The notes: generated from the sequence alone by a model not told the origin. A DNA stretch of 64,000 nucleotides from Candidatus Poribacteria bacterium (GCA_963663765.2 CAXXUA010000005.1:480001-544000), one strand, 5' to 3'. Positions 15,856-56,443 are shown, counted from the stretch's first letter. A program made the numbers and translations.

Positions 15856-15921
15856 TTTCACTTTACCTTAAACCCCGCACTAATGTAATACTGTTGAAAA
15901 TACAAGGAAATTTACGTACTT

Positions 15922-22793: not shown

Positions 22794-22967
22794 CTAATTT
22801 CTCCTTTTTCTCACTTTCTTATATGCACGTTAAAAAAACTATATTCTTATAAGCATAGACTGACATCAGACCATGAATGTATAACTGTATGAATTATGGA
22901 CAATAATACACAAATACCATTTTTCTGTCAACAACAAATTAACCTATGGGTGTGTAAAATTTTTGCT

Positions 22968-29268: not shown

Positions 29269-30741
29269 ACGACCTGTTTTAGTTAACTTAATGTTTGTAT
29301 TATTATCACACCTATTAAGCTTGTGTTATTAACATATCGTCCCTACCAAATCAACGCCAAATGCGCGTTTGGCATTTGGCGGGACTAAAGATAGGGTATT
29401 CAACGTTTTTCTATAAAAATATCGTCCCTACGGGACTAAATGGTTCACTCTTTAAGTCTTTGCGATATTTCTTCAATTGAAGTTCCATAGGGTTCTAACT
29501 TGTATCTCGGTTGCTCTTGTGGGTCTTTCTTCCAATGGTAAGGGTGTTTATGGACATTCCACCAACACACCGCGCACTCAATGGATTCGATGAGTTCATC
29601 TTGTGTCTCAAACTTTCTCCCTTTCAATGCCAGTGATCTGAGTTGTTTCCACCAAGGTTCTATCAGGTTTAACCAACACGCATATTTCGGAATAAACTGA
29701 ACTCCTACCTCCGGCCACACCAATAATGCGGTTTTTACATCACGACTATGGTGAGTAGAAAGATTGTCTTCAATCAAAAGCCGCTTGTCTGATGGAAACT
29801 TCTCTATGATTTTCTCAAGCAATGCTATATGACTTGCACTATCCCTCCTCTGAAATCACTATTTCCTCTTGACCCGTCGCACGTTCAAACACATCATGAA
29901 CCCATACTTTACCACGACGACCATAGTCCAGTTCAAAGGTCACACGACCCACACCGCGTTGCCAAACTTCACCGGATATGTTTTAGCTTCTATCGGTCCC
30001 ATCTCATCAATACAGACAACACAAGTATTAGGCGGCGGGGAACGATACGCCGCTATAACAGTCCCCTTTTTTCTACAACTCTTTGTCTTGCTTCTCCGCT
30101 TCACGAAACCAACTTTGTTGACGCTTCAAACGCAATCCCTCTTCATTTAGCCACTCCCAGATTGTTGAATCAGAAAGATGAATACCTGTTCTTTCTTTAA
30201 ATGCCGTTTGCAACCGTATCAATGTCCACAACTCAAATGGATAACCGAGACTACGCGGATTTTGCATTGCTAAATCTATGAGTTTCCCTCGCACCTCTGT
30301 TGAATGCACACGCGGTTTCCCACTTTTCGGCTTATCTGTGAGCCCTGGGATACCCGCTTCATTGAACCTTTTGACCCAACAGGGACCAGAGTTATCCGAC
30401 TTGAAACCCACATTTATTCCTGCTTGAGTAGCTGTCAGTGTCTCGTCATCAAGCATGCTAACAATCAATTTCGCACGCTGCACCATCCGATAGGAATGTG
30501 TGCGTGAACTCGCAAGTCTCCTCAATTCAACGTTTTCTTCCTCATTAACCTCACGAATGTGATGTATTCGTTTTCCCATCTCAATTCTCCTCTCCATTTT
30601 TTGAATTTAATAGATAGAAGAATTATACCAAAATATCTTGGCGAGTCAACCACTAAATAAGAAATCAACTCTTGAAAAAACTAAGAAAGCGTCTGCAATT
30701 GTGAAGCACTACATTACAAATAGTTATTTAGCACAACTCGT
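29269..30741 (-). mobile_element. MITE family C, 7-bp TSD ATATTTA, hosting an IS630
   Basis: atattta|acgacctgttttagttaact ... agttatttagcacaactcgt|atattta. Confidence 0.82.
29439..30653 (-). mobile_element. IS630-family insertion sequence with TA duplication; transposase decayed
   Basis: HTH ORF 30073..30597 and DDE_3 portion (DEMGP, DNLSTH, P.YA.WLN.IE.WW) ending 29445; AAAAAAG slippery site plus extra frameshifts; ends aatggttcactc / gagtcaaccac flanked by TA. Confidence 0.88.
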
Positions 30742-32035: not shown

Positions 32036-33898
32036 CTATTTGTTCTCGTCGCTTGGGATTGTCCACAATAACACTGTGCCGTCATAACTGCCACTGGCAA
32101 GGGTTTTGCCATCCGGACTAAATGCTACATTACGGACCCATCCCGTATGTCCTTTGAGTGTGTGTATGATCTTCCCCGTGTCTGTGTTCCACAAGCGGAT
32201 GGTTTTATCCATACTTCCACTGACAAGTGTAATACCATCTGGACTGAACGCTACACAGTTGACCTGATTTGTATGTTCTTCCAGTGTGTGTATGATGTTC
32301 CCTGTGTCTGCGTTCCACAAATGAATGGTGTTGTCTCTACTTCCGCTTGCGATTATTTTTCCATCCGCTCTGAACGCGATGCTCTTGACCGTTCGCGTAT
32401 GCCCATTAAGTGTGCGGAGGCGATTACCCGTGTCTGTGTTCCACAAGCGGATGGTTGTGTCCTCACTTCCGCTTGCGATTGTTTTCCCATCTGGACTGAA
32501 CGCGACGCTGATGACACCCTCCGTATGTCCTGTGAGGACGCGAAGATGCGTGCCGTTGTTTGCGTCCCACACGCGGACAGAGAAGTCCTTACTACCACTT
32601 GCGATTGTGCTTCCATCAGGACTGAACGCGACGCTGGTGACATAATGTGTATGTCCTGTGAGGGTGTGTATGAGGTCACCAATGTTGAAGTTCCACAAGC
32701 GAATGGTTTTGTCCTCACTTCCACTTGCGATTGTGTTTCCATCTGGACTGAATTCTACGCTGCTGACACCCTCCGTATGCCCTTCAAACGTGCGGAGAAG
32801 GGTAGCAGTGTCTGGTTTCCATAGATGAACAGCTGTATCCTGACCGCAACTGGCGAGAATGTTACTATCCGGGCTGAACGCTACACTATAGACAGCATCC
32901 GTATGTCCTTCAAATGTGCGGAGGAGATCACCCATGTCTGCATTCCAAAAACGGAGGGTTCCGTCCCCACTGCGACTGGCAATTGTTTTTCCATCCGGAC
33001 TGAAGGCTACACCTCTGACACCCTCCGTTTGTCCGTCAAACGTGCGTAGGTGATCACCTGTGTTTGCGTCCCACAAGCGAAGCGTATTATCCTTACTGAC
33101 GCTTGCGAATGTTTTCCCATCTGGACTGAAGGCTACATGTCTGACTATACCGGTATGTCTTTCCAGCGTGCGTATGAATTTATAAGTGTTAGCGTTCCAC
33201 AAACGGATCGTATTGTCACGACTTCCGCTGGCGATCATGTTACCATCTGGACTAAATACTACGGTGAAGACAGCAAACTCGTGTCCTGCAAGAGTAGGGA
33301 GGTAATTCCCTGTGTTAGCGTTCCACAAACGGATTGTGTTGTCTGAATTCCCACTTGCAATCGTGCTACCATCCGGACTGAAGGCTACGGTATAGACATC
33401 ACCAGCATGTGCTGTTAGTGTTCGGATGTGTGTACCGTTGTGAAAGTTCCACAAACGGACGGTTACGTCCCCACTGCCACTGGCAATTGTTTTTCCATCC
33501 GGACTGAACGCTACACTGCTGACCCAACTCTTATGTCCTTTGAGTGTGCGTATAAGGTCACTCGTGTCTGCGTTCCATAAGCGGATGGTGTTGTCAACAC
33601 TCCCACTGGCGATTGTTTTTCCATCCGGACTGAACGCTATGCTGGTGACTTGAGATGTATGTCCTGATAAGAGATCAAGTTCTTCGCCTGTCTGTGCATC
33701 GTATATCCACACGCCGATGCTACTTGCTACGGCTAACTTTGTGCCATCGGGTGAATACGATAAATTACCAGTAATCTGTCCTTTCCCGAGTCGTGCTTTT
33801 GCACCTTCGGGGAGATTCCATTCTGTGTAGTCTTGAGCAAACGTGGTTGTGGATGCTAAGGTCAGGACGATCCATAGTGTGTAGAATATGTGATTCAT
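32036..33898 (-). CDS. Secreted WD40-repeat protein with highly regular repeats
   Basis: Signal peptide, LPEGAKARLGKG, about 13 GH..V.SVAFSPDG.TIASGS.D.TIRLW repeats. Confidence 0.93.
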   Translation of the reverse strand: MNHIFYTLWIVLTLASTTTFAQDYTEWNLPEGAKARLGKGQITGNLSYSPDGTKLAVASSIGVWIYDAQTGEELDLLSGHTSQVTSIAFSPDGKTIASGSVDNTIRLWNADTSDLIRTLKGHKSWVSSVAFSPDGKTIASGSGDVTVRLWNFHNGTHIRTLTAHAGDVYTVAFSPDGSTIASGNSDNTIRLWNANTGNYLPTLAGHEFAVFTVVFSPDGNMIASGSRDNTIRLWNANTYKFIRTLERHTGIVRHVAFSPDGKTFASVSKDNTLRLWDANTGDHLRTFDGQTEGVRGVAFSPDGKTIASRSGDGTLRFWNADMGDLLRTFEGHTDAVYSVAFSPDSNILASCGQDTAVHLWKPDTATLLRTFEGHTEGVSSVEFSPDGNTIASGSEDKTIRLWNFNIGDLIHTLTGHTHYVTSVAFSPDGSTIASGSKDFSVRVWDANNGTHLRVLTGHTEGVISVAFSPDGKTIASGSEDTTIRLWNTDTGNRLRTLNGHTRTVKSIAFRADGKIIASGSRDNTIHLWNADTGNIIHTLEEHTNQVNCVAFSPDGITLVSGSMDKTIRLWNTDTGKIIHTLKGHTGWVRNVAFSPDGKTLASGSYDGTVLLWTIPSDENK

Positions 33899-34979: not shown

Positions 34980-36353
34980 ATGGCAACGTTAATGCAAACT
35001 GAAAATCGTATCAGACCGATCTATATTGATGGATACACCCACAAATTGAGTTACGAACCCGGTGAAGATATTGCGTTCCATGTCTCAACAAGTGCGGGAA
35101 ACTACTCCTTGGAAATTGCACGCATCGGTGTGACACGTGAAGTCGTATTCAACGAATCTGAACTCCCTGGGGAAGCACAACCTGTCCCTGAAAACGCTTC
35201 ATCACACGGATGTGGTTGGAATGCCACCTTCACACTTGAAGTACCAGACACATGGTAAAGTGGGTATTATGAAGGCACCCTTCGCGCAACTGATAGCGGT
35301 GGAGACACTTTATATAGAAACCAGCGTACTGCAGAGAGTTCACTGTTCTTCATCATTCGCGCTTCCAAACCGGGTGAAAACACACCCATTCTCCTCCAAC
35401 TCTCTACCAACACGTACAACGCTTACAATAACTGGGGCGGTTTTAGTCTCTACGGATTTCACGGACACAGTAAGTTGCAAGGCAACCGTGTTTCATTTGA
35501 CCGTCCTACTGGAGGCATCTTTAGAAATTGGGAATTACCCTTCATCGTCTGGGCAGAGCAGAACGGATATTCACTTGATTATGTAGTGAATAGTGACTTG
35601 GAATTCCATCCTGATATATTGGAACATTACAAACTCGTATTGAGCGTTGGGCATGACGAATACTGGTCTGCACCGATGCGGGATAATCTTGAAGCATTCA
35701 TCACAAATGGCGGTAACGTTGCCTTTTTTAGCGGCAATTCTGTGTGTTGGCAGGTGCGTTCTGAAGACAATGGACGCGCCCTCGTCTGCTGGAAGCAGAG
35801 TTACAACCAAGACCCTATCTATAAAACCGATGATTATAGTACGCTGAGTACCTTGTGGAGTCACTATCTGGTGAACAGACCTGAAAATCAGCTGACGGGT
35901 GTCGGTTTCTTACAAGGCGGTTATCACTTGAGCCACGGGCAGTTTATGGATGGTAGTGGTGCATATACAGTGCATCGTCCTGAACATTGGGTATTTGAAG
36001 GCACAAACTTAGCAAGAGATGACACATTCGGTGGAGAGCATACCATCGTTGGTTATGAATGTGATGGGTGTGAATTCACGCTTGAAGATGGTTTACCCGT
36101 ACCAACCTATAATGATAGCACACCTGAAGGATTTACCATCCTCGCAACCGCACCTGTCCGTTGGCATCCAGACGATTGCGAATGGTATGAACGTTGGCAA
36201 AAAGGACATACTGGCGCAGCAACAATGGGTATTTATACAAAGGGTGGCACCGTCTTTACTGCTGCAACTACAGACTGGTCACACGGATTGGCAGGTGGGG
36301 ATGCTGTTGTTGAGCGGATTACACATAATGTTTTGCGGAGGCTTTCGGAGTAA
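34980..36353 (+). pseudogene. N,N-dimethylformamidase beta-subunit-like protein with one in-frame TAA (35256-35258)
   Basis: Both ORFs are in the same frame: PDTW*SGYY...NTYNAYNNWGG.SLY...VSFDRP...GHDEYWS...VGYECD. Confidence 0.82.
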
Positions 36354-36423: not shown

Positions 36424-37149
36424 CTATTTTTCCTGGTTTATCCATTGATCTAGTTCTTTCAAGTGTTCGCCTACGATAGAATGATCACTCCGCTGCCGAA
36501 ACTCATTACGGAGATTATTATATTCCTTTCTACCATATAGTGTTGCGATTAGGCAGAACAAAAGGGATATGGGACACTTTGCGGGTACGGGAAAAGAGGG
36601 TTGCGTTTCTGGGAGCCAACTGGGACAATCAATCTGCAGTTTACTATCAAGATAATCTTTATCAAATTTCTTAATAAGTTGTGCGTGGTGGAAGTCATGA
36701 ATTCCCTCTTTACCTGCTGGAGTCTCGGTCTGATTCGCGCTCTCTGGTGTTTCTAAACGAAAACCAATTCCGTAAGGTTTTTGACATTCGTCAGGGCAAT
36801 TGCCAAGACATACTAGCATGACTCTGAGTTTTGCGATGCTATGTGTTTGGTTCCACTTGCAATATAAAGACAGGATTGGGACAAAGTGACCATCTTTTTC
36901 CAGAGGGGGCAAGTATAAAACCTTGCCTTGATCGGAAAAATCCAATTGAGGTTGCTTAAATAAAGATTCTATCTCTTTAGTAGTGGTTATAGGTATCCAC
37001 TTATATTTTATTGCATTGTAAGTTTTCAATGCTTGACAGGATGGTTTTCGCTGCGATTTTTTTGTAATCCACGCCGATCTTTGTTTACTTAACAGATGTA
37101 TGAGAAAATCTTTTAACACGTTGCTTGGTGTGGTCATTGCACTCCCCAT
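36424..37149 (-). CDS. Hypothetical protein, last gene of the methylase operon
   Basis: Long ORF 6 bp from the previous stop; GFRLETPE..HDFHHAQL motif. Confidence 0.7.
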   Translation of the reverse strand: MGSAMTTPSNVLKDFLIHLLSKQRSAWITKKSQRKPSCQALKTYNAIKYKWIPITTTKEIESLFKQPQLDFSDQGKVLYLPPLEKDGHFVPILSLYCKWNQTHSIAKLRVMLVCLGNCPDECQKPYGIGFRLETPESANQTETPAGKEGIHDFHHAQLIKKFDKDYLDSKLQIDCPSWLPETQPSFPVPAKCPISLLFCLIATLYGRKEYNNLRNEFRQRSDHSIVGEHLKELDQWINQEK

Positions 37150-37155
37150 GTAAAA

Positions 37156-38460
37156 TTACAGCGAAAACCGAGCTCTGGGTCGGTAATCAATTTCGTCCTC
37201 ATTAAAATAGTTTACAAATCTTTGGGTAAAGGGCGAGGTAGTATCAGCGAGGAACTCTCTACAACACCCATGATTGTAGAAACGGGAAGCGTCTTCACAA
37301 AATACCCAATCAGGGGTCGCAGTCAACCAAGGTTCTGTTACTTCTTTGATGTCTTCACATTCGCGTAGTTTATCCCAAAACCAGACAGGTCGCGAAATCC
37401 AATGGGCTTTGTCAACTCTGCCGAATCTATAGCACTCAATCAAATTTGTATCCAATCCCAAATCTTCATGCCCTGCCAGTCGTGCTGTTTTATTCCAAGT
37501 TTCAATATTCTCCCTATCACCCTTAATTAAACTTGGATACCTTGAAACCAGATGCGGTGCATCTACCAAAATATCTTGCTCCGGTAGGACGAGTTGCTCC
37601 AACCATTTTGATATTCTGGCAGCACCAACCCTCGCTAAAACGTGCTTATTAATCTCATCGTCTGAATCCTTTATATCCTCTACATCTTTAAATCTCAAAC
37701 CGTTTCCAGATTTCGTTATAAACTCCCGAAACGTTGTTTGAAAATGTTCTTTTCCTTTATCTCTCCAGATGAATTGAACGATTTCTCGTGGTAGTAACTC
37801 AAATAAATCTCTGTCAAAACCAAGAAATTCACTGATGGGTTTCTCCAAATTGTCTTGAACATCTTGGACCCTTTCGTCAAAGTCACGCAGCAAATCACAT
37901 AAATTCGGCCAGCACCAAGGTCTGAACCCTTGTTCAGAATCCTGCCAATCACCCATCCAGAGATTAGGATTGTCTAACTGCTGATCCCCCAAATTCAAGT
38001 CCGCGAATGAATCCAGATCTCCTCTCAGGGTTAGATCAAAAGGATTACTACCATACTGATTCAATCCAATAATCAATTTGCATTTTGAAAAGCAGCGAAC
38101 AAGATAAGCGACGATTTCACCGGTTAGAAATCCTGTAATAAGTTTCATCTCTTTTTTCTTTTTCTTTTTTTCTTTCTCTTGACTATCCAATAAATCGTAA
38201 TCAATTATAAAAATTGATGCATTATCTATTTCATCTGCTTCATCCTTGTGATTATTTTCTAGATCCTTTTCTCCTTTCCGAAATTCAATTTGCCTCTGTT
38301 TCAACGCTTTTATTGCGTTTTGGAATTCACCATGTTTTAGGGATTTAACATTAAAATTTCCGCCTTGATTTGACTTGTCAAGTCCCTCCTCCAATTTTTC
38401 CATAAAACCCTTTGTACGTTTCGGTGCATCATCATATATCAGGATTGTTTCCTTACTCAT
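37156..38460 (-). CDS. Divergent receiver-domain protein with a large unknown C-terminal region
   Basis: ILIYDD (beta1 acidic pair) and IFIIDYDL (phosphoacceptor-like); ATGA overlap with the kinase gene. Confidence 0.65.
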   Translation of the reverse strand: MSKETILIYDDAPKRTKGFMEKLEEGLDKSNQGGNFNVKSLKHGEFQNAIKALKQRQIEFRKGEKDLENNHKDEADEIDNASIFIIDYDLLDSQEKEKKKKKKEMKLITGFLTGEIVAYLVRCFSKCKLIIGLNQYGSNPFDLTLRGDLDSFADLNLGDQQLDNPNLWMGDWQDSEQGFRPWCWPNLCDLLRDFDERVQDVQDNLEKPISEFLGFDRDLFELLPREIVQFIWRDKGKEHFQTTFREFITKSGNGLRFKDVEDIKDSDDEINKHVLARVGAARISKWLEQLVLPEQDILVDAPHLVSRYPSLIKGDRENIETWNKTARLAGHEDLGLDTNLIECYRFGRVDKAHWISRPVWFWDKLRECEDIKEVTEPWLTATPDWVFCEDASRFYNHGCCREFLADTTSPFTQRFVNYFNEDEIDYRPRARFSL

Positions 38461-40625
38461 TTTTCTTCCCTCCATTCAATTGAGAAAGCGGTCTTAAATT
38501 CTTTTTGTGGTTCTACGAACCGGACACGACAACCAATATTGTCTGCCACTAATCGGACAATCGTAAGTCCGAGTCCGGTGCCACCGTAGCCAAGTGCTTT
38601 CCTTTCCGGTGAGATTTTTGACTCCCTTTCAAAAGGTTCAAACAACTTCTCTGCGTTTTTTAAATTGATCCCATGTCCAGTATCCTGGATGAGAATTTTA
38701 TGGTTTTTATCATGAGAACGAGAACTGATATGCAGCAAGCGTGTAGGAGAATCAAGCATTGCAGTAAAAGCGTTAATAAACACATTTTGAAAGATGGCAC
38801 CCCATTCAGCAAATGACGCCTTAGGAAGATACAATAGATCATCAAGTTGATTATAATTTATTTTAGTGTCTCTTGCCAAAAAACTTGTCTGGTGGGTGAT
38901 TTCTTCAATTACTGTCTTTGCCCGTAGTCTTTTGTCTCGCATTAGTATATTATCGGCATCAGCGACGTAGTCAAACAGAAGGTTCGTTGATTTTGCCCTT
39001 TTAAGCCAAACTGTTAAATCCTTGCTTAGTGAATTAAGATTTTTTTGAAGTTCAGAATCCAATGTCTTTATCGCTTTGATTTTATTTATGGTGTTTTCAA
39101 TAAAAGCAAACTGTTTTTGCAGTTCATGTTGATATGATAGTGCTGAAATACCCGCAGTGGCAAGGGGGGCAAGCATTCCCATCTGTCCAAGAACAAGTTC
39201 CTGATCATCCTTTACATTCGTTGTTGCCTCATGAACTTCCTTATAAATTTCTTTGTAAACTTCTTTAGGAATATCTGATTCGTATGCTTCTAACACCTGT
39301 TCAATACGTTCAAATTTCAAAGATGTTGGTTCAATTGATTTTTCTCGTTCTTTTTCTTTATTCCTTCTCTTTGTAGTTTCATGTGCGTAAAAATCTATTG
39401 CAGTACGAACCGTAGCTACCAAATCATCATAGGCAGTAGTCTGAGCTAAACGGTCTCTTGTAATCATGATTTTAAGATTAGGTTCATTGGAAGTATTGAC
39501 GATTACAATCCCAAGCACACGACCAAGAGTTGGTAAATTATGCATTGCATTGGAAATTGGCTCAATACTCTTACCAAGGAGTTTGGACTTGTTTTGTCTA
39601 TGTGAGTGATCATACTCTAATTTCAACCAATCGCTCGTTGGTAAACCGTAAAAAGGAAGACGAAAACCTCCATCATATACATGAACACCACCGTGTTTTT
39701 TGAAATATTCTCTTGCTTCTCCTACTTTGATCCTAAACTTTTGTTTTCCCTTTAAATTATAGATACGAATCTCAAAACGGCAAGTGTTTAGGTTTATATT
39801 CTTGTTGAATTTTCCATTATTATGGTCAAAATTTCTAATATTGTAATTATGGATTATTTTCTCTCCATCTGAAAACTCTAAGGAGAGGATCAGTTCCCCA
39901 TCAACACACTTACCAACAAGTCGAGCAATCCAGATACCCTTTACGGCATTCATTTGGCTTAAAAATTCCTTTTCAAAATCCTGCTGAGTTGATTGAAAAC
40001 GGATTCTAAAACGATCTTTTGGATTGTCCAAAGATGATGAGCCAAAAGGTGGTTGCAGCCACCACAATTCTGAAGCGAGTTCTTGAATAGATTTTTCTGT
40101 CCAATTATCTTTGTCCTTTAGACCTTCCAAGATGAGTGTAGTACCATGTGGGGTATCTAATTCCCATTTACTGCGGTTGTATATATCATATTCAACCATT
40201 ACTTTTGTTAGATCCTCAGCTTCCACAGCTTTTTTCCAATCTATTTGGGCTTCAAGCAGTTGAGGGTTTTTACCTTCTGGAAGAGTTTTTATTGTTAATT
40301 CGTTAGCTAGAAATTGAACTGCTAATCGTCCCACTCCTTTTGATCCGGTCATTTTCCGATTAAACTTTTTGGTAAATTCATTATTCTTATGAGTTGTTCC
40401 AATCCGCATCCAGAAATTTTTGAAATCACTATAGGTCATACCATGCCCATCGTCACTAATTTCAATACGTTCCATATCGGGTGTGAAATCAATTATGACT
40501 TCGGTGGCATCAGCATCATAACTGTTTTTTATCAATTCAGCTAAGGCAATGTGTGGTTTGCCAACGAGCCTTTCACCAAGTTCTCTTAGAAGTTCAGCAT
40601 CAATTGTAAAAGCTAGTGTGCCCAT
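38457..40625 (-). CDS. MORC/GHKL ATPase fused to a histidine kinase
   Basis: N-terminal ELIKNSYDADA, DDGHGM, GSKGVGR, GTTL; C-terminal YQHEL H-box, QNVFINA, DTGHGI, LFEPF, GTGLGL. Confidence 0.88.
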   Translation of the reverse strand: MGTLAFTIDAELLRELGERLVGKPHIALAELIKNSYDADATEVIIDFTPDMERIEISDDGHGMTYSDFKNFWMRIGTTHKNNEFTKKFNRKMTGSKGVGRLAVQFLANELTIKTLPEGKNPQLLEAQIDWKKAVEAEDLTKVMVEYDIYNRSKWELDTPHGTTLILEGLKDKDNWTEKSIQELASELWWLQPPFGSSSLDNPKDRFRIRFQSTQQDFEKEFLSQMNAVKGIWIARLVGKCVDGELILSLEFSDGEKIIHNYNIRNFDHNNGKFNKNINLNTCRFEIRIYNLKGKQKFRIKVGEAREYFKKHGGVHVYDGGFRLPFYGLPTSDWLKLEYDHSHRQNKSKLLGKSIEPISNAMHNLPTLGRVLGIVIVNTSNEPNLKIMITRDRLAQTTAYDDLVATVRTAIDFYAHETTKRRNKEKEREKSIEPTSLKFERIEQVLEAYESDIPKEVYKEIYKEVHEATTNVKDDQELVLGQMGMLAPLATAGISALSYQHELQKQFAFIENTINKIKAIKTLDSELQKNLNSLSKDLTVWLKRAKSTNLLFDYVADADNILMRDKRLRAKTVIEEITHQTSFLARDTKINYNQLDDLLYLPKASFAEWGAIFQNVFINAFTAMLDSPTRLLHISSRSHDKNHKILIQDTGHGINLKNAEKLFEPFERESKISPERKALGYGGTGLGLTIVRLVADNIGCRVRFVEPQKEFKTAFSIEWREEK

Positions 40626-40642
40626 TGTTTTAACCTTTAGTT

Positions 40643-41704
40643 TTATTGAGAGGCGGTTTCAAGATGAAGTTTAATACTTTGTGCAATAATTTGTGCTAAT
40701 TTAACAGGCACAGCATTTCCAATTAAACGACAAATAGTCGTCACATGATGCGGATCATTTGGGTGAACAAATTGATAGTTGTCTGGAAACGTTTGGAGGC
40801 GTGCAGCCTCTCTTACTGATAGTCCTCGGTCCTGTTCAGGATGACCAAACCTACCGTTCCCAAATCCAAAGCAAGTGGTCGTAAGTGTTGGCGATGGAGC
40901 GTCCCATTCCATTCTTCCATAAATTGATGTGTAACCACGACCTATACCATGTTGATGGCATTTAGCGACTAATTCAGCTGGCCAGTCCTTCCAAGTACCG
41001 CCAGGTCTTGATGCTCTAATCCTTTGTAAGTTTAGTTCAGACAACCCCGCAGCTTTATGATATGGATCTTTCTGACTTGTTTGACCAGCTTCAATTGGTT
41101 CCAAATCAGAAATCGTATCCCGAACACTCTTATAGTTTTCCTGCGTATGAGTTGGCTTCAAGAGATCTATCTTGCCATATTTTGATTTTGAAGCGAGGAG
41201 AACAAGTCGTTTCCGGGTTTGAGGAATACCATATTTTGGGCAAAATACCTTCGGATATGCAGACACTTCATAACCGTTGCTTTTCAAAGTTTCTATGAAT
41301 TCCAGATATATTTCCCCTTTTCTGAAAGTTGTTAAAGTGGGAACATTTTCCATTGAAACAATATCAGGTTTGATTTCTGAAATAATATTTGAAAAATTGG
41401 AAAGTAATTTCCATTTGCTATCAGGATTCCGCATGCCTTTGTTATATGCAGAAAAGGGTTGGCATGGTGCACATCCAATTAATATTTTAACGTCACCTTC
41501 AGGATAACGTTGCATAAGTTCAGAAACCTTCACGTCTTCAATTTTCTTATTAATGAAGATGGCTCCCTGATTATTGGTTTCATAGGCATATTTGCAGGAT
41601 TTATCAGCATCTAATCCTGCAACAACATTAAAACCCTCTAATATGAAGCCGTGTGTGAGAGCACCCGCACCGCAGAATAAATCTATAACCGAACAGTCTG
41701 TCAT
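40643..41704 (-). CDS. dcm: DNA (cytosine-5)-methyltransferase
   Basis: DLFCGAG, PCQPFS, ENV, PQTRKR, REAARLQTFP, GNAVP. Confidence 0.95.
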   Translation of the reverse strand: MTDCSVIDLFCGAGALTHGFILEGFNVVAGLDADKSCKYAYETNNQGAIFINKKIEDVKVSELMQRYPEGDVKILIGCAPCQPFSAYNKGMRNPDSKWKLLSNFSNIISEIKPDIVSMENVPTLTTFRKGEIYLEFIETLKSNGYEVSAYPKVFCPKYGIPQTRKRLVLLASKSKYGKIDLLKPTHTQENYKSVRDTISDLEPIEAGQTSQKDPYHKAAGLSELNLQRIRASRPGGTWKDWPAELVAKCHQHGIGRGYTSIYGRMEWDAPSPTLTTTCFGFGNGRFGHPEQDRGLSVREAARLQTFPDNYQFVHPNDPHHVTTICRLIGNAVPVKLAQIIAQSIKLHLETASQ

Positions 41705-42267
41705 AGTAATTTGATATTGTAAATATATAGTTTTTAAACACGGAATGAAGAAACCACATGAACTACAATTCCAGTTCAATATATCTTACAATTTTCCTCT
41801 GTATTTTGTTCTTAATTTTAGCTACCCATGTGCCAAATTCCAAATACACGTTATCGTAGAACGATATTATATCCCTTATTTTACATCAAACTGTTACTTG
41901 TGTCAAATACCAATCAGGAGATATGAATTCGTCATGAAAAATTATATGAATACAATTTCTATAATGTTATATTATAGTACACTTAACATAATTTGTCAAG
42001 TATAATTCAAGCACGGTCGTCTGATCATTGATTTGAAGTAAGAAATAAATATTGCTAATTTAAGAGAAAAAGAACCAATGTCTCTGCCAATTTAATGTTT
42101 GCTAAAAACTTCAACACATCAATTCTGAAAACTTTGGTTCTATAATGATATATATTTCAACACGAATTTAACTCCTATCTAAAGATTTATCAATCCTTTT
42201 GATATTTTTCATCATATCTGCTATACTTTCAAACAACACTTCAACCCAATAGAAACCGGAGTTTCAA

Positions 42268-43766: not shown

Positions 43767-45968
43767 ATGAAAAAACTCATTTTGTTGCTAATGTTCTATA
43801 TCCTTGTAGCACAGCATTTATACCCCGCTATTGCGCAATACGAACCCTCCACACAAATAGGTTTACCTGAAGGGGCAATTGCCCGTTTCTGCAGAGGGAG
43901 TATAAAAAAAGTAACGTATTCTCCAGATGGTACACGGCTTGCGGTTACCACGTCCATCAGTGTTTGGATTTACGATACACAGACAGGAAAAGAACTTAAA
44001 CTACTTGCAGGAAAACATACACATGTTGTCCATTCCGCTGACTATTCCCCAGATGGAAAAACTATCGCTACTGCAAGTTGGGACAATACTATACGACTAT
44101 GGGACACACGCACAGGTAAAAACACAAAAACTCTCAAAGGACATACCTACGGAATAACTTCAATAGCGTATTCCCCGGACGGTAAAACAATCGCATCCGC
44201 AAGTGCAGACAAGACTTTGCGACTTTGGAATGCACGCACAGGAAAAAATATACAAATACTTTCAGACCAAGGCGAAAATGTCTATTCAGTTATTTTCTCT
44301 CCAGATGGAGAAACAATTGGAAGTAGCGGGGGACGAAAAACAGTCCGCCTGTGGAATACACGCACATCGAATAACACCATCACATTCAAACCAAATACGT
44401 ATAGAGGATACATCTATTCCATAGCATTTTCTATGGATAGCAAGATAATCGCAATTGGGGGTATGGAAAAGTTAGAGTTATGGGATGCATCTACAGGACA
44501 ACCTATAAAAGCAATTGAAGCACATAAAGATAGAGTCTCCACTATTGCATTTTCACCAGATGGGAAAACAATCGCAACAGGGGGTGGAGACGGTATAATG
44601 CAGTTGTGGGATATAACTACTTGGCAACCTATAAGAACATATAATGCACATATAAGAAAAATATCTTCTCTTGCATTTTCACCAGATGGAAAAACAATTG
44701 TCACTGGTAGTTGGGACGGTACAATGGGGTGGTGGGAAACACATACAGGAAAAAACATAAAAATATTTACAGGATATCTCGGGGGCAATAGAATAAAGTA
44801 CTCACCAGATGAAAAAACAATTGCAATCACTGCAGGAGGTCCGGTGCATCTCTGGGATGTAACTACAGGAATGTATCTCAGAACCCTTAAAGGACATATA
44901 GGTTATACACCTGGTGTTGCTTTTTCTTCTGATGGAAATATTATAGCTACTGGAAGTGCAGACAAGACAGTGCGGTTATGGGATATACACTCTGGTGAAA
45001 CTATAAAGATACTCACTGAACATACAAACCTTGTATATACCCCTATATATTCGCCTGATGGTAATATGTTTGCAACTCGTAGTAGGGATCATACTTTACG
45101 GTTGTGGGATGCAGCCACAGGTGAAAATATAAAAACTTTTCAAAGAGGGAATGAAGGAATGAATTTCATTTTCTCACCTGATAGCACTACACTTGCTGTC
45201 GGAAATTCTGGGGGTACAGTCCTTTTGTGGGATACACGAACAAGAGAGAATGTAAACACACTCATTGGACATACAGATCTTGTCTATACTCTTTTATATA
45301 CCAATGATGGCAAGACTATTGGAACTTACAGTAGGGATAACACAGTACGGTTATGGAATGTACACACGGGGAAAAGTATCAAAACCTTCAGCACAGAAGA
45401 AAAAATTGTTGATGTTATGTCTTCACTGGAAGGTAACGTTATTGCAATTACTGTGCACAAAGAGGTAGTATCACTATGGAATGTTGCAACAGGACTACTC
45501 ATAAAGGCATTTGAAGGACATAAGAAAGGGTTTTTTGAATCTTTGGGTCGATTCTCTATTAGAAAAACTAAAAATACATTTGGGGGACCTCCAAAACACG
45601 TCCGATCAGTTAGATACTCACCGAATGGTGAATCGATTGCCGCTATCAGGAATAACGAGACTGTCCAACTATGGAATATCAACACAGGAAAACGTATTGG
45701 AAAACTGATAAAACAACTCAAAGATGATCCTTCTGAAGGCACTACTGACGTTGTATATTCTCCAGATGGAAAAACAATCGCAACTATTCAAATCAGTAAT
45801 AGTGGTGGTACGGTAAGACTCTGGGATACGACAACAGGAAAAAACATAAAAACACTCAAAGGACATGATAATTGTAGTAATTCATTTACATTTTCACCGG
45901 ACAGCAAGACAATTATCACAGCACACCAAGGCGGCACAGTGCTACTCTGGGACATCCCAACACGATAA
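43767..45968 (+). CDS. Secreted WD40-repeat protein (array copy 1)
   Basis: Signal peptide, GLPEGAIARF, SPDG.TIA repeats, C-terminal GTVLLWDIPTR. Confidence 0.92.
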   Translation: MKKLILLLMFYILVAQHLYPAIAQYEPSTQIGLPEGAIARFCRGSIKKVTYSPDGTRLAVTTSISVWIYDTQTGKELKLLAGKHTHVVHSADYSPDGKTIATASWDNTIRLWDTRTGKNTKTLKGHTYGITSIAYSPDGKTIASASADKTLRLWNARTGKNIQILSDQGENVYSVIFSPDGETIGSSGGRKTVRLWNTRTSNNTITFKPNTYRGYIYSIAFSMDSKIIAIGGMEKLELWDASTGQPIKAIEAHKDRVSTIAFSPDGKTIATGGGDGIMQLWDITTWQPIRTYNAHIRKISSLAFSPDGKTIVTGSWDGTMGWWETHTGKNIKIFTGYLGGNRIKYSPDEKTIAITAGGPVHLWDVTTGMYLRTLKGHIGYTPGVAFSSDGNIIATGSADKTVRLWDIHSGETIKILTEHTNLVYTPIYSPDGNMFATRSRDHTLRLWDAATGENIKTFQRGNEGMNFIFSPDSTTLAVGNSGGTVLLWDTRTRENVNTLIGHTDLVYTLLYTNDGKTIGTYSRDNTVRLWNVHTGKSIKTFSTEEKIVDVMSSLEGNVIAITVHKEVVSLWNVATGLLIKAFEGHKKGFFESLGRFSIRKTKNTFGGPPKHVRSVRYSPNGESIAAIRNNETVQLWNINTGKRIGKLIKQLKDDPSEGTTDVVYSPDGKTIATIQISNSGGTVRLWDTTTGKNIKTLKGHDNCSNSFTFSPDSKTIITAHQGGTVLLWDIPTR

Positions 45969-46270
45969 GAATTAGGCACTTGACAACATTCGCTACCAAC
46001 TGAATACTTAAAACAACACTAATTGAGATACAGGAGATTAAAATATGAAGAAACTGCTTTTTCTACTGATACTTGGAATAATCTGTTTATCATCTGTCTT
46101 CGCTCAATACGAACCTTACACGCAAAAAGGTTTACCTGAAGGTGCTATTGCCCGTTTCGGCAGAGGGAGAATAAAGGAATTAACGTATTCCCCAGACGGT
46201 ACACGGCTTGCTGTTACCACGTCCATCGGGGTTTGGATTTACGATGCGCAAACTGGAGAAGAACTTGACC
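45931..46270 (+). repeat. Near-identical junction repeat (gene end + intergenic/promoter + signal peptide), copy 1
   Basis: Matches 48218-48557; contains TTGACA at 45980 and AGGAG RBS. Confidence 0.88.
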
Positions 46271-48255
46271 TTATTACAAGAAAACATGTAGATAGTAGCA
46301 ATACTATTGTGTTTTCCCCAGACCATAAGAGAGTCATAACCGCCGATTGGTGGAGTACAAAAGCACGATTATGGGACACACAGACGGGTAAACCTATAAA
46401 AACACTCACTGGACATAAAGGTCAAATTAATACTATTGTGTTTTCCCCTGATAGCAAAACAATCGCAACGGTAAGTGATGACAAAACAATTCGGTTGTGG
46501 AATGCACGGACAGGGAAAAATATACAAACACTTACAGGACATACTAAATCTGTCAATTCAGTTAGATTTTCACCAGATGGAAAAACAATCGCTGCGGCGA
46601 GTGAAGATAAAACGACAAAACTGTGGAATGTGCATACAGGAAAACTAATAAATACATATTCTGTGTTTCTACGTCCAATGGCGTTTTCACCGGATGGGAA
46701 AACATTGATTGGAATTAGTGAAACTCACAGTAGTACCCGGGGCGTGCAGCTTGTAGTACAGATGCGGAATGTGGCCACAGGAGAAACTACAAAAACATTC
46801 TCTTGGCGCAATATCGTTTATTCTGTTGCGTTTTCACCAGATAGAAAAACAATCGCTGCTGGAGGTCTTGATGGTACGATAAGGTTATGGGATGCAACTA
46901 CTGGACAAGCCATAAATACTTTTAAAGGACATAAGGCTATAGTCAATAACGTTATGTTTTCACCAGATGGAAAAACAATCGCCACTGCAAGCCGTAGCAC
47001 AATGCGATGGTGGGATGCACACACCGGTGATAACATAAAAACCTTTACAGACTATTCAGGTGGCACTCATGATACTGCAATTTCACCAGATGGAAAAACA
47101 ATCGCTATAGGCAAATTCATGAAAGAAGTATGGCTGCGAGATATAACTACAGGAAAACACCTAAAAACCTTTGATGGACATACAGGTTATATTTCTTCAG
47201 TAATGTTTTCACCAAAAGGAAGTACACTATTAGTTAACAGTAATGATAAAAAGGTATGGCTGTGGAATGTATCCACTGGAGAAAATCTATTAACACTCAA
47301 AGGAGACATATATGATATTAAATTTGGTATGTTTTCTCCAGATGGACAAGCGATCGTAACTTACTGTAGCGACAATACACTACGACTGTGGGACACAGAA
47401 ACAGGACAACACCAAAAAACATTTGAAACTGACAAATACCATCGCTCAGGATGGTATGCGTATGCACCTGATGGTGTTAATCTATTAGTTAACTGTAATG
47501 ACAAAACGGTACGAATGTGGAATTTGACAACCGGAGAAAACACCGTAACACTTAAAGGGGATACTTACAATGTTAGGTATGGTTTGCTTTCACCGGATGG
47601 TAAAATAATCGCAACGAGTTGTAGCGATTACACCATACGCCTGTGGGATTCAAATACAGGAAAACACTTAAATACACTCAAAACCTCTACGGCAACAACT
47701 TCTGCAGTGGCATTTTCACCGGATAGCAAAACACTCGCAATTGCTACCCCTTGGGATAAATCACCTTGGCTATGGGACGTTGCCACAGGAGAATATATAA
47801 AAACATTTGAAGCACATCGGCAAGAAATCACCAAATCTATTGCCAAATTATGGGAATCTAAAAAACATAAGGTGCCAGATGATTATATTCGTTCTATTCA
47901 ATATTCACCTGATGGTAAAACGATCGCAGTTTTCAAGGAAAACGATATGGTACTGTTGTGGAATGCTACCACAGGAAAACCTATAGGAAAACCCATAAAA
48001 CCGCAAAAAGGTGTCCCATCTGATTTTCATACTGAACTACTTTTTTCACCTGATGGTAAAACACTCGCTACAAGACCAGTTGGCAATTTTGGTGGGACAG
48101 TAAGATTGTGGGATGCTGCAACGGGGAAGCACATAAAAACACTCAAAGAAAGTACATACTGTGCCAATCCTGCTGTTTTCACACCCGACAGTAAAATGAT
48201 CGCAACAAGCCATTGGGGCGGCACAGTGCTACTCTGGGACATCCCCACACGTTAA
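46045..48255 (+). CDS. Secreted WD40-repeat protein (array copy 2)
   Basis: Same architecture as copy 1. Confidence 0.92.
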   Translation: MKKLLFLLILGIICLSSVFAQYEPYTQKGLPEGAIARFGRGRIKELTYSPDGTRLAVTTSIGVWIYDAQTGEELDLITRKHVDSSNTIVFSPDHKRVITADWWSTKARLWDTQTGKPIKTLTGHKGQINTIVFSPDSKTIATVSDDKTIRLWNARTGKNIQTLTGHTKSVNSVRFSPDGKTIAAASEDKTTKLWNVHTGKLINTYSVFLRPMAFSPDGKTLIGISETHSSTRGVQLVVQMRNVATGETTKTFSWRNIVYSVAFSPDRKTIAAGGLDGTIRLWDATTGQAINTFKGHKAIVNNVMFSPDGKTIATASRSTMRWWDAHTGDNIKTFTDYSGGTHDTAISPDGKTIAIGKFMKEVWLRDITTGKHLKTFDGHTGYISSVMFSPKGSTLLVNSNDKKVWLWNVSTGENLLTLKGDIYDIKFGMFSPDGQAIVTYCSDNTLRLWDTETGQHQKTFETDKYHRSGWYAYAPDGVNLLVNCNDKTVRMWNLTTGENTVTLKGDTYNVRYGLLSPDGKIIATSCSDYTIRLWDSNTGKHLNTLKTSTATTSAVAFSPDSKTLAIATPWDKSPWLWDVATGEYIKTFEAHRQEITKSIAKLWESKKHKVPDDYIRSIQYSPDGKTIAVFKENDMVLLWNATTGKPIGKPIKPQKGVPSDFHTELLFSPDGKTLATRPVGNFGGTVRLWDAATGKHIKTLKESTYCANPAVFTPDSKMIATSHWGGTVLLWDIPTR

Positions 48256-48557
48256 GAATTAGGCACTTGACAACATTCGCTACCAACTGAATACTTAAAA
48301 CAACACTAATTGAGATACAGGAGATTAAAATATGAAGAAACTGCTTTTTCTACTGATACTTGGAATAATCTGTTTATCATCTGTCTTCGCTCAATACGAA
48401 CCTTACACGCAAAAAGGTTTACCTGAAGGTGCTATTGCCCGTTTCGGCAGAGGGAGAATAAAGGAATTAATGTATTCCCCAGACGGTACACGGCTTGCTG
48501 TCATCACATCCATCGGTGTTTGGATTTACGATACACAAACTGGAGAAGAACTTGATC
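48218..48557 (+). repeat. Junction repeat, copy 2
   Basis: Matches 45931-46270. Confidence 0.88.
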
Positions 48558-50602
48558 TGATAGCAGGAGAACATGAAGACAGAGTTTATGATGCTGCTTA
48601 TGCACCTGATAGCAAGAATATCGCGACTGTGGGGAAGGACAAAACGGTACGACTATGGGAAGTTCACACAGGACAACTCCTAAAAACGCTCAATGGACAT
48701 AAGGACGAGGTCCTGTCTGTTGCATATTCACCTGATGGTCAGACACTGGCAAGTGGTGGTTCAGACAATACTATCCGAATCTGGAATGCAAATACAGGAC
48801 AACTCCTAAAAACGCTCATTGGACATAAGAAAGGAGTTTTGTCTGTTGCGTATTCACTAGATAGTGAAACAATTGTAAGTAGCAGTAGTGATGACACAAT
48901 CCGATTTTGGGATGTAGCAAAGGGGCAATTGAAGAATATAGTTCAGGGATATCGGGCTTTGATTTCCTATTCTCCAGATGGTAAGACACTTCTTGTAGTA
49001 GCAGATACTGATAGCAGCAATTCATTCTTAATAAAATCAAAAGATTCAGAAGGTAAAACGGACACAGAAATAATTCCGATTATGACACTTGATACTATTT
49101 ATACTATACACATGTTGAATGCAGTCACAGGAGAACAGATAAATATAATATCATCATTAAATTATGTTAATTGTTTTTCGTATTCCCCAGATGGAAAAAC
49201 AATCGCTATTAGTGATGGAGAAAGGTTTGGACTTTGGGATGCGACTACTGGAAAACACCTAACAACTCTTATTGAGGATAAGATTAAAGCTGTTGCGTAT
49301 TCACCCGATGGAAAAACTATTGCTACTGTCAGTGGTAACACAATTCAATGGTGGAATGCTCAAACAGGAAAAAGCATAAAAACATTTCCATGGTCCACTT
49401 ATTATTCTTATGCAATTAGATTATCACCTGATGGCAAAACAATCGCAATATTACATGGTAATTCAATTTGTCTATGCAATGCGGAATCTGGAAAGTATCT
49501 AACCACAATTACAGGTCATAAGAGGTCTATTTCTGGCTTCGCGTTTTCGCCGGATAGCAAAACTATTGCAACTGGAGGTGGAGACGGGACAGCACGGTTA
49601 TGGAACGCAAATACGGGTGAAAATATACATATAATCAATTTCCCTACAGATCCTCGCAATGAACCCATTAGCATTGATCCCCCGAAGTATTCGCCTGATG
49701 GTAAATCACTTGCAATTCGCAGTAAAGACAATACGGTGTTTTTATGGGATATGCAATTGGAATACATTATAAAAACTATTCCAGGAAAGCATTACCACAC
49801 AAAACAATTTGTTTTTTCTCATAATGGAAAAATACTTGCGACAAGGTCTAAGACTGAGGCAGTTCATTTATGGAATACGAAAACTGGACAATACATAAAC
49901 ACACTCACAGGACTTGTTCATTTCATTACATTTTCACCAGATGGAAATATACTTGCAACCTCTTTGAATAATTGGGTGGAATTATGGAGTATAAACACAG
50001 GAGAAAATCTAAGTAAACTCTTCATACCTAATGCATGTAACACTAAAATTATGTATGCAGAAAACGGCAATCCATTCACAATTACTATCCATCAAAATGA
50101 ATCGGTATCACTTTGGGATCTAACAACAGGAGAGCACATTCAAGCATTTGAGGGAGACATGAATGAGACACTTGCATCATTAGGTCGTTCTTTTCTGAGA
50201 ATGGCAAATAAGGATACACTAGCAAGTGTGAACAATCAGATAATAGTTTCACCTACACAAGATACGTTCGTGACTGTTGTTAATCACAACCCTGTTAGAC
50301 TTTGGAATATTACGACAAGAAAACAAATAGGAAAATCAATAATACCCCTCAAAGGTGAGAAAAGTTATACAATAGTTCAATATTCCCCAGATGGTAAAAC
50401 AATCGCCACTATTCCAGTTGGTACTAATCAGCAAGGTGGTACGGTGCGATTGTGGGATGTAGCCTCAGGTGAACATCTAAAGACACTCAAGGGACATTCA
50501 AATTGCGATTATAATTCAGTAGCGTATTTCCCGGATAGCAAAACAATCGCAACTGGACATGATGATGGTACGGTAATACTCTGGGACATCCCCACACGAT
50601 AA
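48332..50602 (+). CDS. Secreted WD40-repeat protein (array copy 3)
   Basis: N-terminus nearly identical to copy 2; ends GTVILWDIPTR. Confidence 0.92.
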   Translation: MKKLLFLLILGIICLSSVFAQYEPYTQKGLPEGAIARFGRGRIKELMYSPDGTRLAVITSIGVWIYDTQTGEELDLIAGEHEDRVYDAAYAPDSKNIATVGKDKTVRLWEVHTGQLLKTLNGHKDEVLSVAYSPDGQTLASGGSDNTIRIWNANTGQLLKTLIGHKKGVLSVAYSLDSETIVSSSSDDTIRFWDVAKGQLKNIVQGYRALISYSPDGKTLLVVADTDSSNSFLIKSKDSEGKTDTEIIPIMTLDTIYTIHMLNAVTGEQINIISSLNYVNCFSYSPDGKTIAISDGERFGLWDATTGKHLTTLIEDKIKAVAYSPDGKTIATVSGNTIQWWNAQTGKSIKTFPWSTYYSYAIRLSPDGKTIAILHGNSICLCNAESGKYLTTITGHKRSISGFAFSPDSKTIATGGGDGTARLWNANTGENIHIINFPTDPRNEPISIDPPKYSPDGKSLAIRSKDNTVFLWDMQLEYIIKTIPGKHYHTKQFVFSHNGKILATRSKTEAVHLWNTKTGQYINTLTGLVHFITFSPDGNILATSLNNWVELWSINTGENLSKLFIPNACNTKIMYAENGNPFTITIHQNESVSLWDLTTGEHIQAFEGDMNETLASLGRSFLRMANKDTLASVNNQIIVSPTQDTFVTVVNHNPVRLWNITTRKQIGKSIIPLKGEKSYTIVQYSPDGKTIATIPVGTNQQGGTVRLWDVASGEHLKTLKGHSNCDYNSVAYFPDSKTIATGHDDGTVILWDIPTR

Positions 50603-54127: not shown

Positions 54128-54424
54128 TAATTAGAAGTAGTCGGCACACGCCGTGTGCCGTACACAAAAAAAGATGTCCAAGATTACAGACACAGCACAG
54201 AGAAACGAAAGGACAACCCATCCGCAGGTATCGCAGGATAAGGAAAATTAATGAAACTCGGTTTGCAATTGAAGGTGGACGATAAAAACACTGTCCCTAA
54301 CAATTGATTAAAACTATATATTAGGTTATAATATATTTAACTGAAGTTTATTTCAATTTATGTATGTATAGTCTATTTCTCTTGACCGCATTTGAAAAAT
54401 TGCTTACATATTGAGACTACTATC

Positions 54425-56289: not shown

Positions 56290-56443
56290 ATGTAATATAA
56301 TAACTAACAATGCAATACAATAAATCCATTCAAACTTTGATTGTAAAACGAATTAGCATAAGAATAATGCATATACCATTTTATAAAGTAATATCTCATT
56401 TAGGAAGACTTCTTCCTGTGCTTGCGCGGACCTCCCATGTCCT

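Follow-up and report, generated by a model that had tools for sequence, protein, structure and literature searches.

A 64,000-nucleotide stretch of DNA from a Candidatus Poribacteria bacterium, referred to below in its full length as the window, carries at positions 36424-41704 four co-directional open reading frames (ORFs), A, B, C, and D, all on the minus strand. Their products are a C5 cytosine DNA methyltransferase (A), a MutL/MORC-type ATPase joined to a histidine kinase core (B), a receiver-like protein with a conserved C-terminal domain (C), and a small protein with a predicted alpha+beta fold (D). The evidence supports the four genes as a conserved, horizontally spread unit, and together they can possibly, though not quite probably, be considered a horizontally mobile, restriction-modification (R-M)-like defence cassette gated by a phosphorelay. 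The operon structure, the linkage of B, C, and D, purifying selection, patchy spread, the modularity of the methylase, and the intact catalytic motifs of A and B are in line with this reading, in which we infer the function in defence, what the signal is, the phosphotransfer, and the chemistry of the effector.

Gene A (dcm, 40643-41704) encodes 353 amino acids, gene B (38457-40625) 722, gene C (37156-38460) 434, and gene D (36424-37149) 241. A and B are separated by 17 bp, B and C overlap in an ATGA, and C and D are 6 bp apart, or 18 bp apart if D starts at 37137; the tight packing of four minus-strand genes with these spacings, described in an earlier sequence-only reading of this DNA, was confirmed at the level of the ORFs. 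The 439-residue version of C proposed there, starting at 38475, has to be given up: that position falls within the ribosome-binding site. Translation from the ATG at 38460, within the ATGA overlap and with GGAGG 9 nucleotides (nt) upstream, gives the 434-residue product, and both the 4-nt overlap and this start of C are common to related loci. For D, the second ATG at 37137 (237 residues) fits the homologues better than the 241-residue start.

The B-C-D set in other genomes and the loss of the methylase

Scanning of a genome collection with an alignment of C gave 46 loci, 42 of them with room for neighbouring genes and 35 of them large. B lies directly upstream of C, on the same strand, in all 42, and D directly downstream in 40; the two exceptions are a locus with a divergent D-like ORF carrying an H..YHAQ motif (L024) and one with an insertion sequence (IS) element in that place (L038). 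This arrangement is far beyond chance, and the co-occurrence of the last two genes with the ATPase gene elsewhere, which the sequence-only reading had presupposed, is thereby found. Ten phylum-level groups are represented among the loci, two of which are from archaea, and the loci of Poribacteria form one clade, which contains the window. Copies of the cassette are also present on plasmids, intact in Mycolicibacterium and degraded in Ornithinimicrobium, and their products are labelled "ATP-binding" or "hypothetical" in RefSeq. A search of plasmids found C in two records and D in none by tblastn, the D of M. arabiense being recognised by hhalign. Four of the Poribacteria copies lie inside islands with type I R-M or AAA_15-DUF3696 genes, and IS elements adjoin several loci; such mobility and surroundings are characteristic of defence genes. 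The family is large: a word-indexed search gave 1143 relatives of C and 156 of D, and the profile of C collected 668 representative clusters at 50% identity, of which the best 150 listed are mostly of about 400 residues.

Vsr is encoded, as a fusion or by an adjacent gene, in 19 of the 46 loci, none of them from Poribacteria. Directly after D, a gene for an HhH-GPD glycosylase is found in L016 (11882-12607) and L030 (1295-1990), both without a Vsr match, and one for an H2TH glycosylase in L041 (12597-13454), where a Vsr match is also present. Some HhH-GPD enzymes repair the T:G mismatches that arise from deamination of 5-methylcytosine (5mC). It is also worth mentioning that in L016, an Anaerolineae locus, two CRISPR-associated genes of the RAMP superfamily (13531-15974) lie about 1.7 kb downstream of D.

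The pairwise distances of B, C, and D are correlated with one another at 0.50-0.80, and the ratio of nonsynonymous to synonymous substitution rates (dN/dS) is 0.15-0.33 for the three genes in all 14 pairs compared, including pairs in which both loci lack the methylase. The parts of the cassette are also exchanged. On two Poribacteria chromosomes (L006 and L036) the C proteins are 99.8% identical over 422 aligned residues and the D proteins 100% identical, and the methylases are 98% identical with identical recognition regions, whereas the B proteins are only 82% identical (they differ by 15-22%) with a dS of 0.51; the identity of C and D next to so divergent a B points to recombination inside the cassette. 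In the window itself B is nearest to its counterparts in L007, L005, and L010, and C to that of L001.

The methylase is the variable member of the set. In 27 of the 35 large loci a C5 methylase was matched over at least 70% of the query, upstream or downstream of the other genes and on either strand, and the methylases that accompany the same B-C-D set fall into two distant clades, one about 30% and the other 50-86% identical to that of the window. Among the eight large loci without such a match, one ends at a contig border (L002) and one has a Dcm-Vsr fusion (L038); the gene is truly absent from the other six (L001, L007, L008, L010, L013, and L015). It is also missing from two shorter loci, L003 and L005, which brings the number of loci with a deleted or replaced methylase to eight. 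The losses go back to at least four different events, and the scars differ: in L001 (7724-7846) 28 N-terminal dcm codons are fused to the ribosome-binding site of B, with the promoter-like site kept; in L005 and L010 an internal methylase fragment lies just 5' of B; in L013 an IS element of the rve type (6512-7360) replaces the gene; and in the remaining loci nothing of it is left. All eight retain the AAGGAT..ATG context before B as well as full-length B and C; D is broken in L010, and the contig of L003 stops within it. Loss of the methylase with retention of B, C, and D argues against a constitutive restriction enzyme, with which such losses would be survivable only if another methylase was encoded elsewhere in the genome, and for an effector gated by a signal.

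Properties of the four proteins

By its domain content and intact motifs, A is a complete Dcm-type C5 methyltransferase. It matches PF00145 (E=4e-62, 210.8 bits, cut-off 22), TIGR00675 (1.7e-41, 142.9 bits, cut-off 100.65), and the PADLOC model MTase_II (6e-93), and motifs I (FxGxG), IV (PCQ at residue 80), VI (ENV), VIII (QxRxR), and X (GNAV) are all present.

B had been described from the sequence as a 722-residue protein with two GHKL domains and an H-box, a description that holds in full. Residues 25-137 match HATPase_c_3 (E=1.3e-27, 96.9 bits, cut-off 25) and residues 611-719 HATPase_c (E=1.5e-18, 67.6 bits, cut-off 26.4). Judged by its motifs and profiles, B is a MutL/MORC-type ATPase fused, through a conserved middle region, to a complete HisKA-type kinase core. 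Within the GHL ATPase domain (residues 1-180, 40086-40625) the Bergerat motifs E30..N34..D37, D58xG60xG62, and G94xxG97xG99 are invariant, and within the part comprising the DHp helix pair and HATPase_c (residues 475-722, 38460-39203) so are H500-E501 of the YQHE H-box (H500 codon at 39126-39128) and the N, G1, F, and G2 boxes; invariance was established over 39 homologues from the loci together with the window protein, and also in a 25-row alignment (A4). Against solved structures, the profile of B matches AdeS (9e-11), CpxA (6e-10), and HK853 (7e-7) over residues 475-706, in alignments starting at H500, and over residues 20-75 it gives weak matches to MutL (1e-5), PMS2 (4e-5), HtpG, and MORC3 (0.003). 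The stretch of residues 121-180 (40086-40265), inside or next to the ATPase domain, is hypervariable among close relatives, with an entropy peak of 1.3-1.5 bits and a pairwise identity of 31-62% versus 80-100% elsewhere in B. The conserved residues 280-400 may correspond to the S5 transducer domain.

The receiver-like beginning of C, also claimed earlier, found support. In its first 160 residues (37981-38460) D10, D11, and D87 (codon 38200-38202, within IIDYDL) are present in all 42 sequences, and T113 in 36, or in 39 when serine is counted with threonine. The Atlas model of P0063, a homologue 68% identical to C, matches Response_reg proteins with template modelling (TM) scores, by row, of 0.62, 0.56, and 0.55. 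On these motifs and on the model of the homologue, the N-terminus of C is best called receiver-like; a conserved Lys after beta5, a hallmark of receivers, was not identified. Thirty-seven proteins of the C family, taken from the 150 listed representatives together with the window protein, were scanned for known families. The Response_reg_2 model PF19192 (gathering score 27 bits) matches neither C at E<=0.1 nor any of the 37 at E<=1, and a helix-turn-helix (HTH) family was found in none of the 37.

The remainder of C (residues 161-434, 37159-37980) is a conserved domain without a matched fold. W184, W286, D300 (in VDAPH), H303, R357, E389-D390 (in FCED), and R414 are invariant, the residues D300, H303, R357, E389, D390, and R414 being present in 42 of 42 sequences. 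C as a whole has no Pfam, PADLOC, or NCBIfam family, and a structure search of the Atlas with the C-terminal part of the homologue P0063 returned unnamed clusters only. Profiles of both C and D gave nothing below E=0.07 against solved structures.

D likewise matches no Pfam, PADLOC, or NCBIfam family. The FRLE..HDFHHAQ motif that had been pointed out in it is real and strongly conserved: all 151 family sequences have P91, R131, H155, Q157, P184, and Y205, and 150 of them have E133 and H151. Structure prediction, which had been proposed as a check on this 241-residue protein, yielded a confident AlphaFold2 model (predicted local distance difference test score 89.2, predicted TM score 0.87), and the accompanying Foldseek search yielded nothing significant, the best matches being at E=0.45 (PDB) and 0.083 (BFVD). 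The model consists of three N-terminal helices, a five-strand meander, and a C-terminal helical hairpin; R131 and E133 are placed on strand 125-133, H155 and Q157 on strand 155-159, and Y205 on a long helix. A scan of 34 D-family members against Pfam at E<=10 returned single chance rows only, with no HNH signature, and longer fused forms of D were not found among proteins of 509-2000 residues, which is weak evidence. Three assignments of D were considered and rejected. Many of its weak top Foldseek matches in the PDB are NTF2-like, all with probabilities <=0.06; presumably such a fold would fit the order of helices followed by a meander sheet, and it is kept as a lead only. No HUH protein is among the listed Foldseek matches, although the residue set of D may resemble the Glu, His-hydrophobic-Gln, and Tyr sites of HUH-type DNA nicking enzymes. 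Finally, a role of D as a substitute for Vsr was set aside, as the two co-occur.

The earlier statement that no restriction endonuclease is recognisable here agrees with the library scans: no nuclease family, the mark of a type II R-M system, was found in B, C, or D with Pfam, PADLOC, or NCBIfam, and a tblastn search of all 64 kb gave no Vsr (best E=0.02).

Known systems, mechanism, and competing explanations

The closest published counterparts are the cassettes described by Bellieny-Rabelo, Pretorius & Moleleki in 2021 (PMC8011034). They consist of HEF_HK (PF19191) kinases with Response_reg_2 (PF19192) partners and a C5 methylase, followed by Vsr, HNH_2, or unnamed genes; they are tied there to paraMORCs, no experiments are presented, and the supplement records 334 occurrences of an unnamed "OG_20". 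The cassette described here has the same succession of a C5 methylase, a soluble kinase composed of HATPase_c_3, DHp, and HATPase_c, and a receiver-like protein, and at the acceptor Asp it has the same motif, DY[DN]L. Bona fide members are, however, larger, with a kinase of 989 residues and a receiver protein of 597-629, and they pass both PF19191 and PF19192, whereas B and C of the window fail both. B scores 15 bits (E=0.035) with PF19191, below the gathering score of 24.1, and a Paraburkholderia relative 17.1; the cassette of a Pantoea plasmid, used as a positive control, scores 26.9 bits with PF19191 for its 989-residue kinase and 70 bits with PF19192 for its 629-residue protein. In a tree of B-like proteins with long branches, the clade of the window B, which includes the Mycolicibacterium copy, is separate from HEF_HK, and a Paraburkholderia cassette with a D-like gene is its sister. 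The C-terminal domain of C does not align with Response_reg_2 proteins, hhalign aligning the DY[DN]L strand only, and no significant match was obtained when C or D was compared by hhalign with proteins from related cassettes, whether receiver-like or HNH. D and the 225-residue Paraburkholderia protein share only the H..FHAQL strand, again not significantly, and no counterpart of D was found in the example HEF_HK/Response_reg_2 cassettes examined, E. coli loci included.

Of 5426 complete E. coli genomes, 212 encode a kinase of the HEF_HK type. In E. coli O55:H7 DEC5E and in the ST131 strain 2822 (L056 and L057) the cassette is followed by a gene annotated as a "phosphorothioated DNA-binding restriction endonuclease", which in strain 2822 lies beside genes for ArdC and a MobH relaxase. 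Given these two neighbours, the HEF_HK cassette of strain 2822 is probably carried by an integrative conjugative element.

A second relative is Ambrosia, described in a 2025 preprint (10.1101/2025.09.30.679545). It comprises an XRE regulator, an N6-adenine methylase, a HATPase/kinase, a protein (AbrC) in which a receiver domain (REC) is joined to a winged HTH (wHTH), and an HNH nuclease of type IV. It protects P. aeruginosa against phage, every gene and the receiver Asp being required. Its expression rises on infection, methylation does not protect the phage, and it is described there as unlike conventional type II R-M and as occurring in Gammaproteobacteria only. The present cassette resembles it in uniting a methylase, a HATPase/histidine kinase, a REC protein, and a fourth output gene in one cluster, an agreement that concerns the kinase and REC elements compared at domain level only. 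It differs in having no XRE gene in or next to the operon, a methylase of the C5 type, and no wHTH or HNH family in C and D. The Ambrosia layout was also found on a Bacteroides plasmid (L052).

In Detocs (10.1101/2023.01.24.525353) a relay from kinase to receiver-effector acts directly as defence and is lost upon mutation of the His or Asp; its parts are DtcA, a kinase with TPR, DtcB, a stand-alone buffer receiver, and DtcC, a receiver with a PNP ATP nucleosidase or another known effector. The phosphorelay as an immune switch, with a domain fused behind the receiver, is the shared idea, proposed here from sequence. Unlike Detocs, the present cassette has a GHL ATPase sensor without TPR, no PNP, no second receiver gene, and a methylase; B, C, and D gave no Detocs-type hit in PADLOC, and the presence of Detocs models in PADLOC 2.0.0 is unconfirmed. 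What B has in common with R-M-associated MORCs and paraMORCs is an HATPase_c_3 ATPase at the N-terminus, its motifs intact and its gene next to that of a cytosine methylase. An association of paraMORCs with R-M systems was described by Iyer, Abhiman & Aravind in 2008 (PMC2292703); that paper contains neither "receiver" nor "two-component" and mentions no histidine kinase fusions. GHKL-nuclease fusions include BbrUII/HgiDII and a paraMORC3-type Shedu, VcSduA (PMC12137116). In all these proteins the ATPase is combined with helicases or with fused PD-(D/E)xK or other nucleases, whereas that of B is fused to a kinase core and no nuclease is recognisable. MADS, with an N6 methylase, eight genes, and no role for a kinase, was set aside.

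The cassette falls into a class of defence cassettes, restriction-like and gated by a kinase, that has been recognised only recently. As to whether it matches an already named system, the answer is divided: the theme of a C5 methylase, a paraMORC-histidine kinase, and a receiver-like protein is already published, and its sister Ambrosia is validated, but B and C fail the 2021 Pfam models, and the C-terminal domain of C and the whole of D are new to the libraries searched. The suggested PADLOC check gave a similarly mixed result, recognising A and the ATPase N-terminus of B and neither C nor D. Publications naming or testing the families of C or D were not found in a search that did not cover most subscription journals.

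In the phosphorelay-gated cassette, A would methylate cytosines of the host DNA and form a modular, dispensable part serving to mark or spare self. B would be a soluble sensor, its MutL/MORC-like ATPase with the fast-evolving insert forming the input module, which most plausibly engages DNA or a cue of infection. Its kinase core would autophosphorylate H500 and pass the phosphoryl group to D87 of C, and phosphorylated C would switch on an output consisting of its own C-terminal domain working with D. DNA is the likeliest target of this output, with C or D as the catalytic partner; alternatively, D may be an NTF2-like adaptor or brake. Gating by the relay would leave B, C, and D harmless without the methylase and so explain its repeated loss. 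Ambrosia, as a proven phage defence of related layout, and Detocs, as a relay that acts directly in immunity, serve as precedents.

Several observations weigh against this scheme. The receiver family PF00072 matches neither C nor any of the 37 C-family members, and the hhalign comparison of C with a canonical receiver is not significant. Searches with Pfam, PADLOC, NCBIfam, profiles, and structures brought to light no fold of a nuclease or other effector in either C or D, and PADLOC 2.0.0 reports nothing for these two proteins and only the ATPase N-terminus for B. Homologues of C or D were not found in phage records. The cassette of the window is bordered by metabolic genes and by no defence genes, and several Poribacteria carry it at the same genomic site, so that here it looks vertically kept. 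The distances between methylases follow those of the other three genes weakly (correlations of 0.17-0.40), and a link of specificity between methylase and effector is therefore not evident; for the recognition region of the methylase and D, an exploratory comparison without a significance test gave a partial correlation of 0.27. Furthermore, the pairs compared for dN/dS, which suggest purifying selection after loss, cannot date the losses of dcm.

A bolder version, which we consider doubtful, would make B, C, and D a self-contained immune module to which the methylase is optional, running from a DNA-clamp sensor through a His-Asp relay to two previously unseen enzyme families. The MutL/MORC-like clamp of B would read foreign or unmodified DNA; one enzyme would be the C-terminal domain of C, with D300, H303, E389, D390, and R414, and the other the unmatched D, possibly of an NTF2-like fold, with R131-x-E133, H151, H155-x-Q157, and Y205. 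D could be a new DNA-processing enzyme if its presumed likeness to HUH sites holds. An added methylase would turn an abortive response into a self-sparing one.

Of the explanations that depart further from the phosphorelay-gated cassette, an Ambrosia-like transcriptional switch survives best, and is still unlikely: B would sense infection and phosphorylate C, C would induce the operon through a DNA-binding output domain, and D, as the sole effector, would act in a type IV-like manner on DNA carrying the 5mC of the system itself. The gene logic is that of Ambrosia, with the REC-wHTH architecture of AbrC, induction by infection, and methylation that does not protect the phage, and D occupies the place of the HNH nuclease in L052 and in the DEC5E and ST131 cassettes. 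Such a switch would also tolerate loss of the methylase, since without substrate there is no toxicity; but if the methylase makes the substrate, the purifying selection on B, C, and D in methylase-less loci is hard to explain. The invariant D300, H303, E389, and D390 of C suit an active site better than a helix-turn-helix; no HTH family was found in the 37 C-family members, and D lacks an HNH signature. The frequent Vsr partners, together with the mismatch glycosylases, moreover suggest standing rather than induced methylation.

A classical R-M system, with B, C, and D as a constitutive ATP-dependent restriction complex that cuts DNA unmarked by Dcm and is internally regulated by the His-Asp pair, is very unlikely. 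The tight operon headed by the methylase, the linkage to Vsr, the association of paraMORCs with R-M systems (PMC2292703), and GHKL ATPases in known type II enzymes would suit it, and the N-terminus of B does match BbrUII/HgiDII (3.8e-28) and PADLOC REase_II models (7.5e-13). These matches, however, cover the ATPase domain only (profile positions 2-176 of BbrUII/HgiDII) and stay far below the family cut-off (98 bits versus 550). The loss seen in the eight methylase-less loci would be lethal under such a system unless a methylase of the same specificity was present elsewhere; moreover, methylases of both distant clades serve the same B-C-D set, and B was exchanged between L006 and L036 with the recognition region of the methylase unchanged.

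It is equally improbable that the genes form a two-component pathway outside defence, in which the MutL-like ATPase reads the state of the chromosome (mismatches, damage from 5mC deamination, or supercoiling) and C and D carry out a repair or epigenetic response: the MutL/PMS2-like N-terminus of B, the neighbouring genes for repair of 5mC damage (Vsr in 19 loci and the glycosylases of L016, L030, and L041), the stable syntenic position in several Poribacteria, and the strong conservation of B and C would fit, but the patchy distribution over 10 phyla and plasmids, the varied contexts within one phylum, R-M islands and IS elements included, the recombination within the cassette, the hypervariable patch in B, and the validated defence function of the sister architecture (Ambrosia) do not. 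Vsr and glycosylases, moreover, go along with C5 methylases of any kind, without a necessary relation to B, C, and D.

Regulatory signals, neighbourhood, and significance

Two promoter-like sequences, both found by pattern matching on the minus strand, precede the operon. TTGACA-17-TAAAAT (41878-41906, 11 of 12 consensus positions) lies about 200 nt 5' of the dcm ATG; it recurs 188-190 nt 5' of dcm in L004, L006, and L036, and in L001, where dcm has been lost, it is still present 294 nt 5' of B. The other, TTGACA-17-TATAAT (41971-41999), agrees with the consensus in 12 of 12 positions and is weaker as a conserved feature, the perfect site being present in none of the five other dcm-positive loci scanned. 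No convincing candidate for a terminator was found inside the operon, and neither a tRNA nor an Rfam family was found in the window. A conserved hairpin in the 5' untranslated region before dcm was considered and rejected: short hairpins of unrelated sequence are located 20-35 nt 5' of the dcm ATG in four relatives (L004, L006, L009, and L017) and not in the window, and only that of L006 has a z-score below -2.

The location between metabolic genes given in the sequence-only reading is correct, the flanks comprising an Amidohydro_2 gene, a DMFA2_C gene, and a sulfatase gene. Its description of the cassette as AT-rich applies mildly: its GC content is 0.37-0.40, whereas the window as a whole has 0.42 and the DNA directly on either side 0.43-0.49. 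Two nearby WD40 genes are equally AT-rich. The DMFA2_C gene beside D is split on the plus strand (34980-35258 and 35475-36353), its 292-residue ORF beginning at profile position 125; intact orthologues of 457-475 residues are present in L001, L002, L006, and L007, and the split is due either to a frameshift, the gene being a pseudogene, or to an error in sequencing.

Elsewhere in the window, a 256-nt direct repeat (53864-54119 and 56444-56699, 98% identical), the first copy of which is the 3' end of a PhyH gene, brackets a 2.3-kb insert (54120-56443). The insert contains a gene with HTH and Peptidase_M78 (ImmA/IrrE-like) domains (54392-55585) and an apparently broken small gene (55582-55734 and 55912-56289), and looks like an integrated cassette that duplicated the end of its target. 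Tandem repeats are present at 22998-23411, within a minus-strand ORF (22939-23424), with about 13 copies of a 30-32-nt unit matching at 84-91%, and at 56874-56954, with three perfect copies of a 27-nt unit. Repeated WD motifs appear in the translations of 32036-33898 and 43767-45968; TRF reports repeats with a period of 126 nt at 32144-33649 and at 48668-48904, two further ORFs of comparable size lie at 46045-48255 and 48332-50602, and a WD40 gene is found in the same neighbourhood in L007. A 174-residue ORF at 30073-30597 on the minus strand has HTH_32/HTH_33 as in the N-termini of some transposases, with no catalytic domain attached.

Two-component signalling as an immune switch is a young idea, dating from Detocs in 2023 and Ambrosia in 2025, and what the MORC-like ATPases of restriction systems sense bears on the eukaryotic MORC proteins, which act together with DNA methylation. 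The lineage to which the cassette belongs is large, as seen from the clusters collected with C, and is spread over bacteria and archaea. It offers several handles for further work: a sensor in which the ATPase and kinase sites are intact and one patch is hypervariable; two output proteins that match no known fold although their invariant residues are sharply defined, one of which, D, is confidently modelled; and natural variants without a methylase, pointing to a gated output. Should the output proteins not be new enzymes, the cassette would be one more member of a described and partly validated class. The main interest therefore lies in two uncharacterised protein families, the C-terminal domain of C and the whole of D, which, if they are new DNA-acting enzymes, would widen the repertoire of effectors and possibly the enzyme toolbox.

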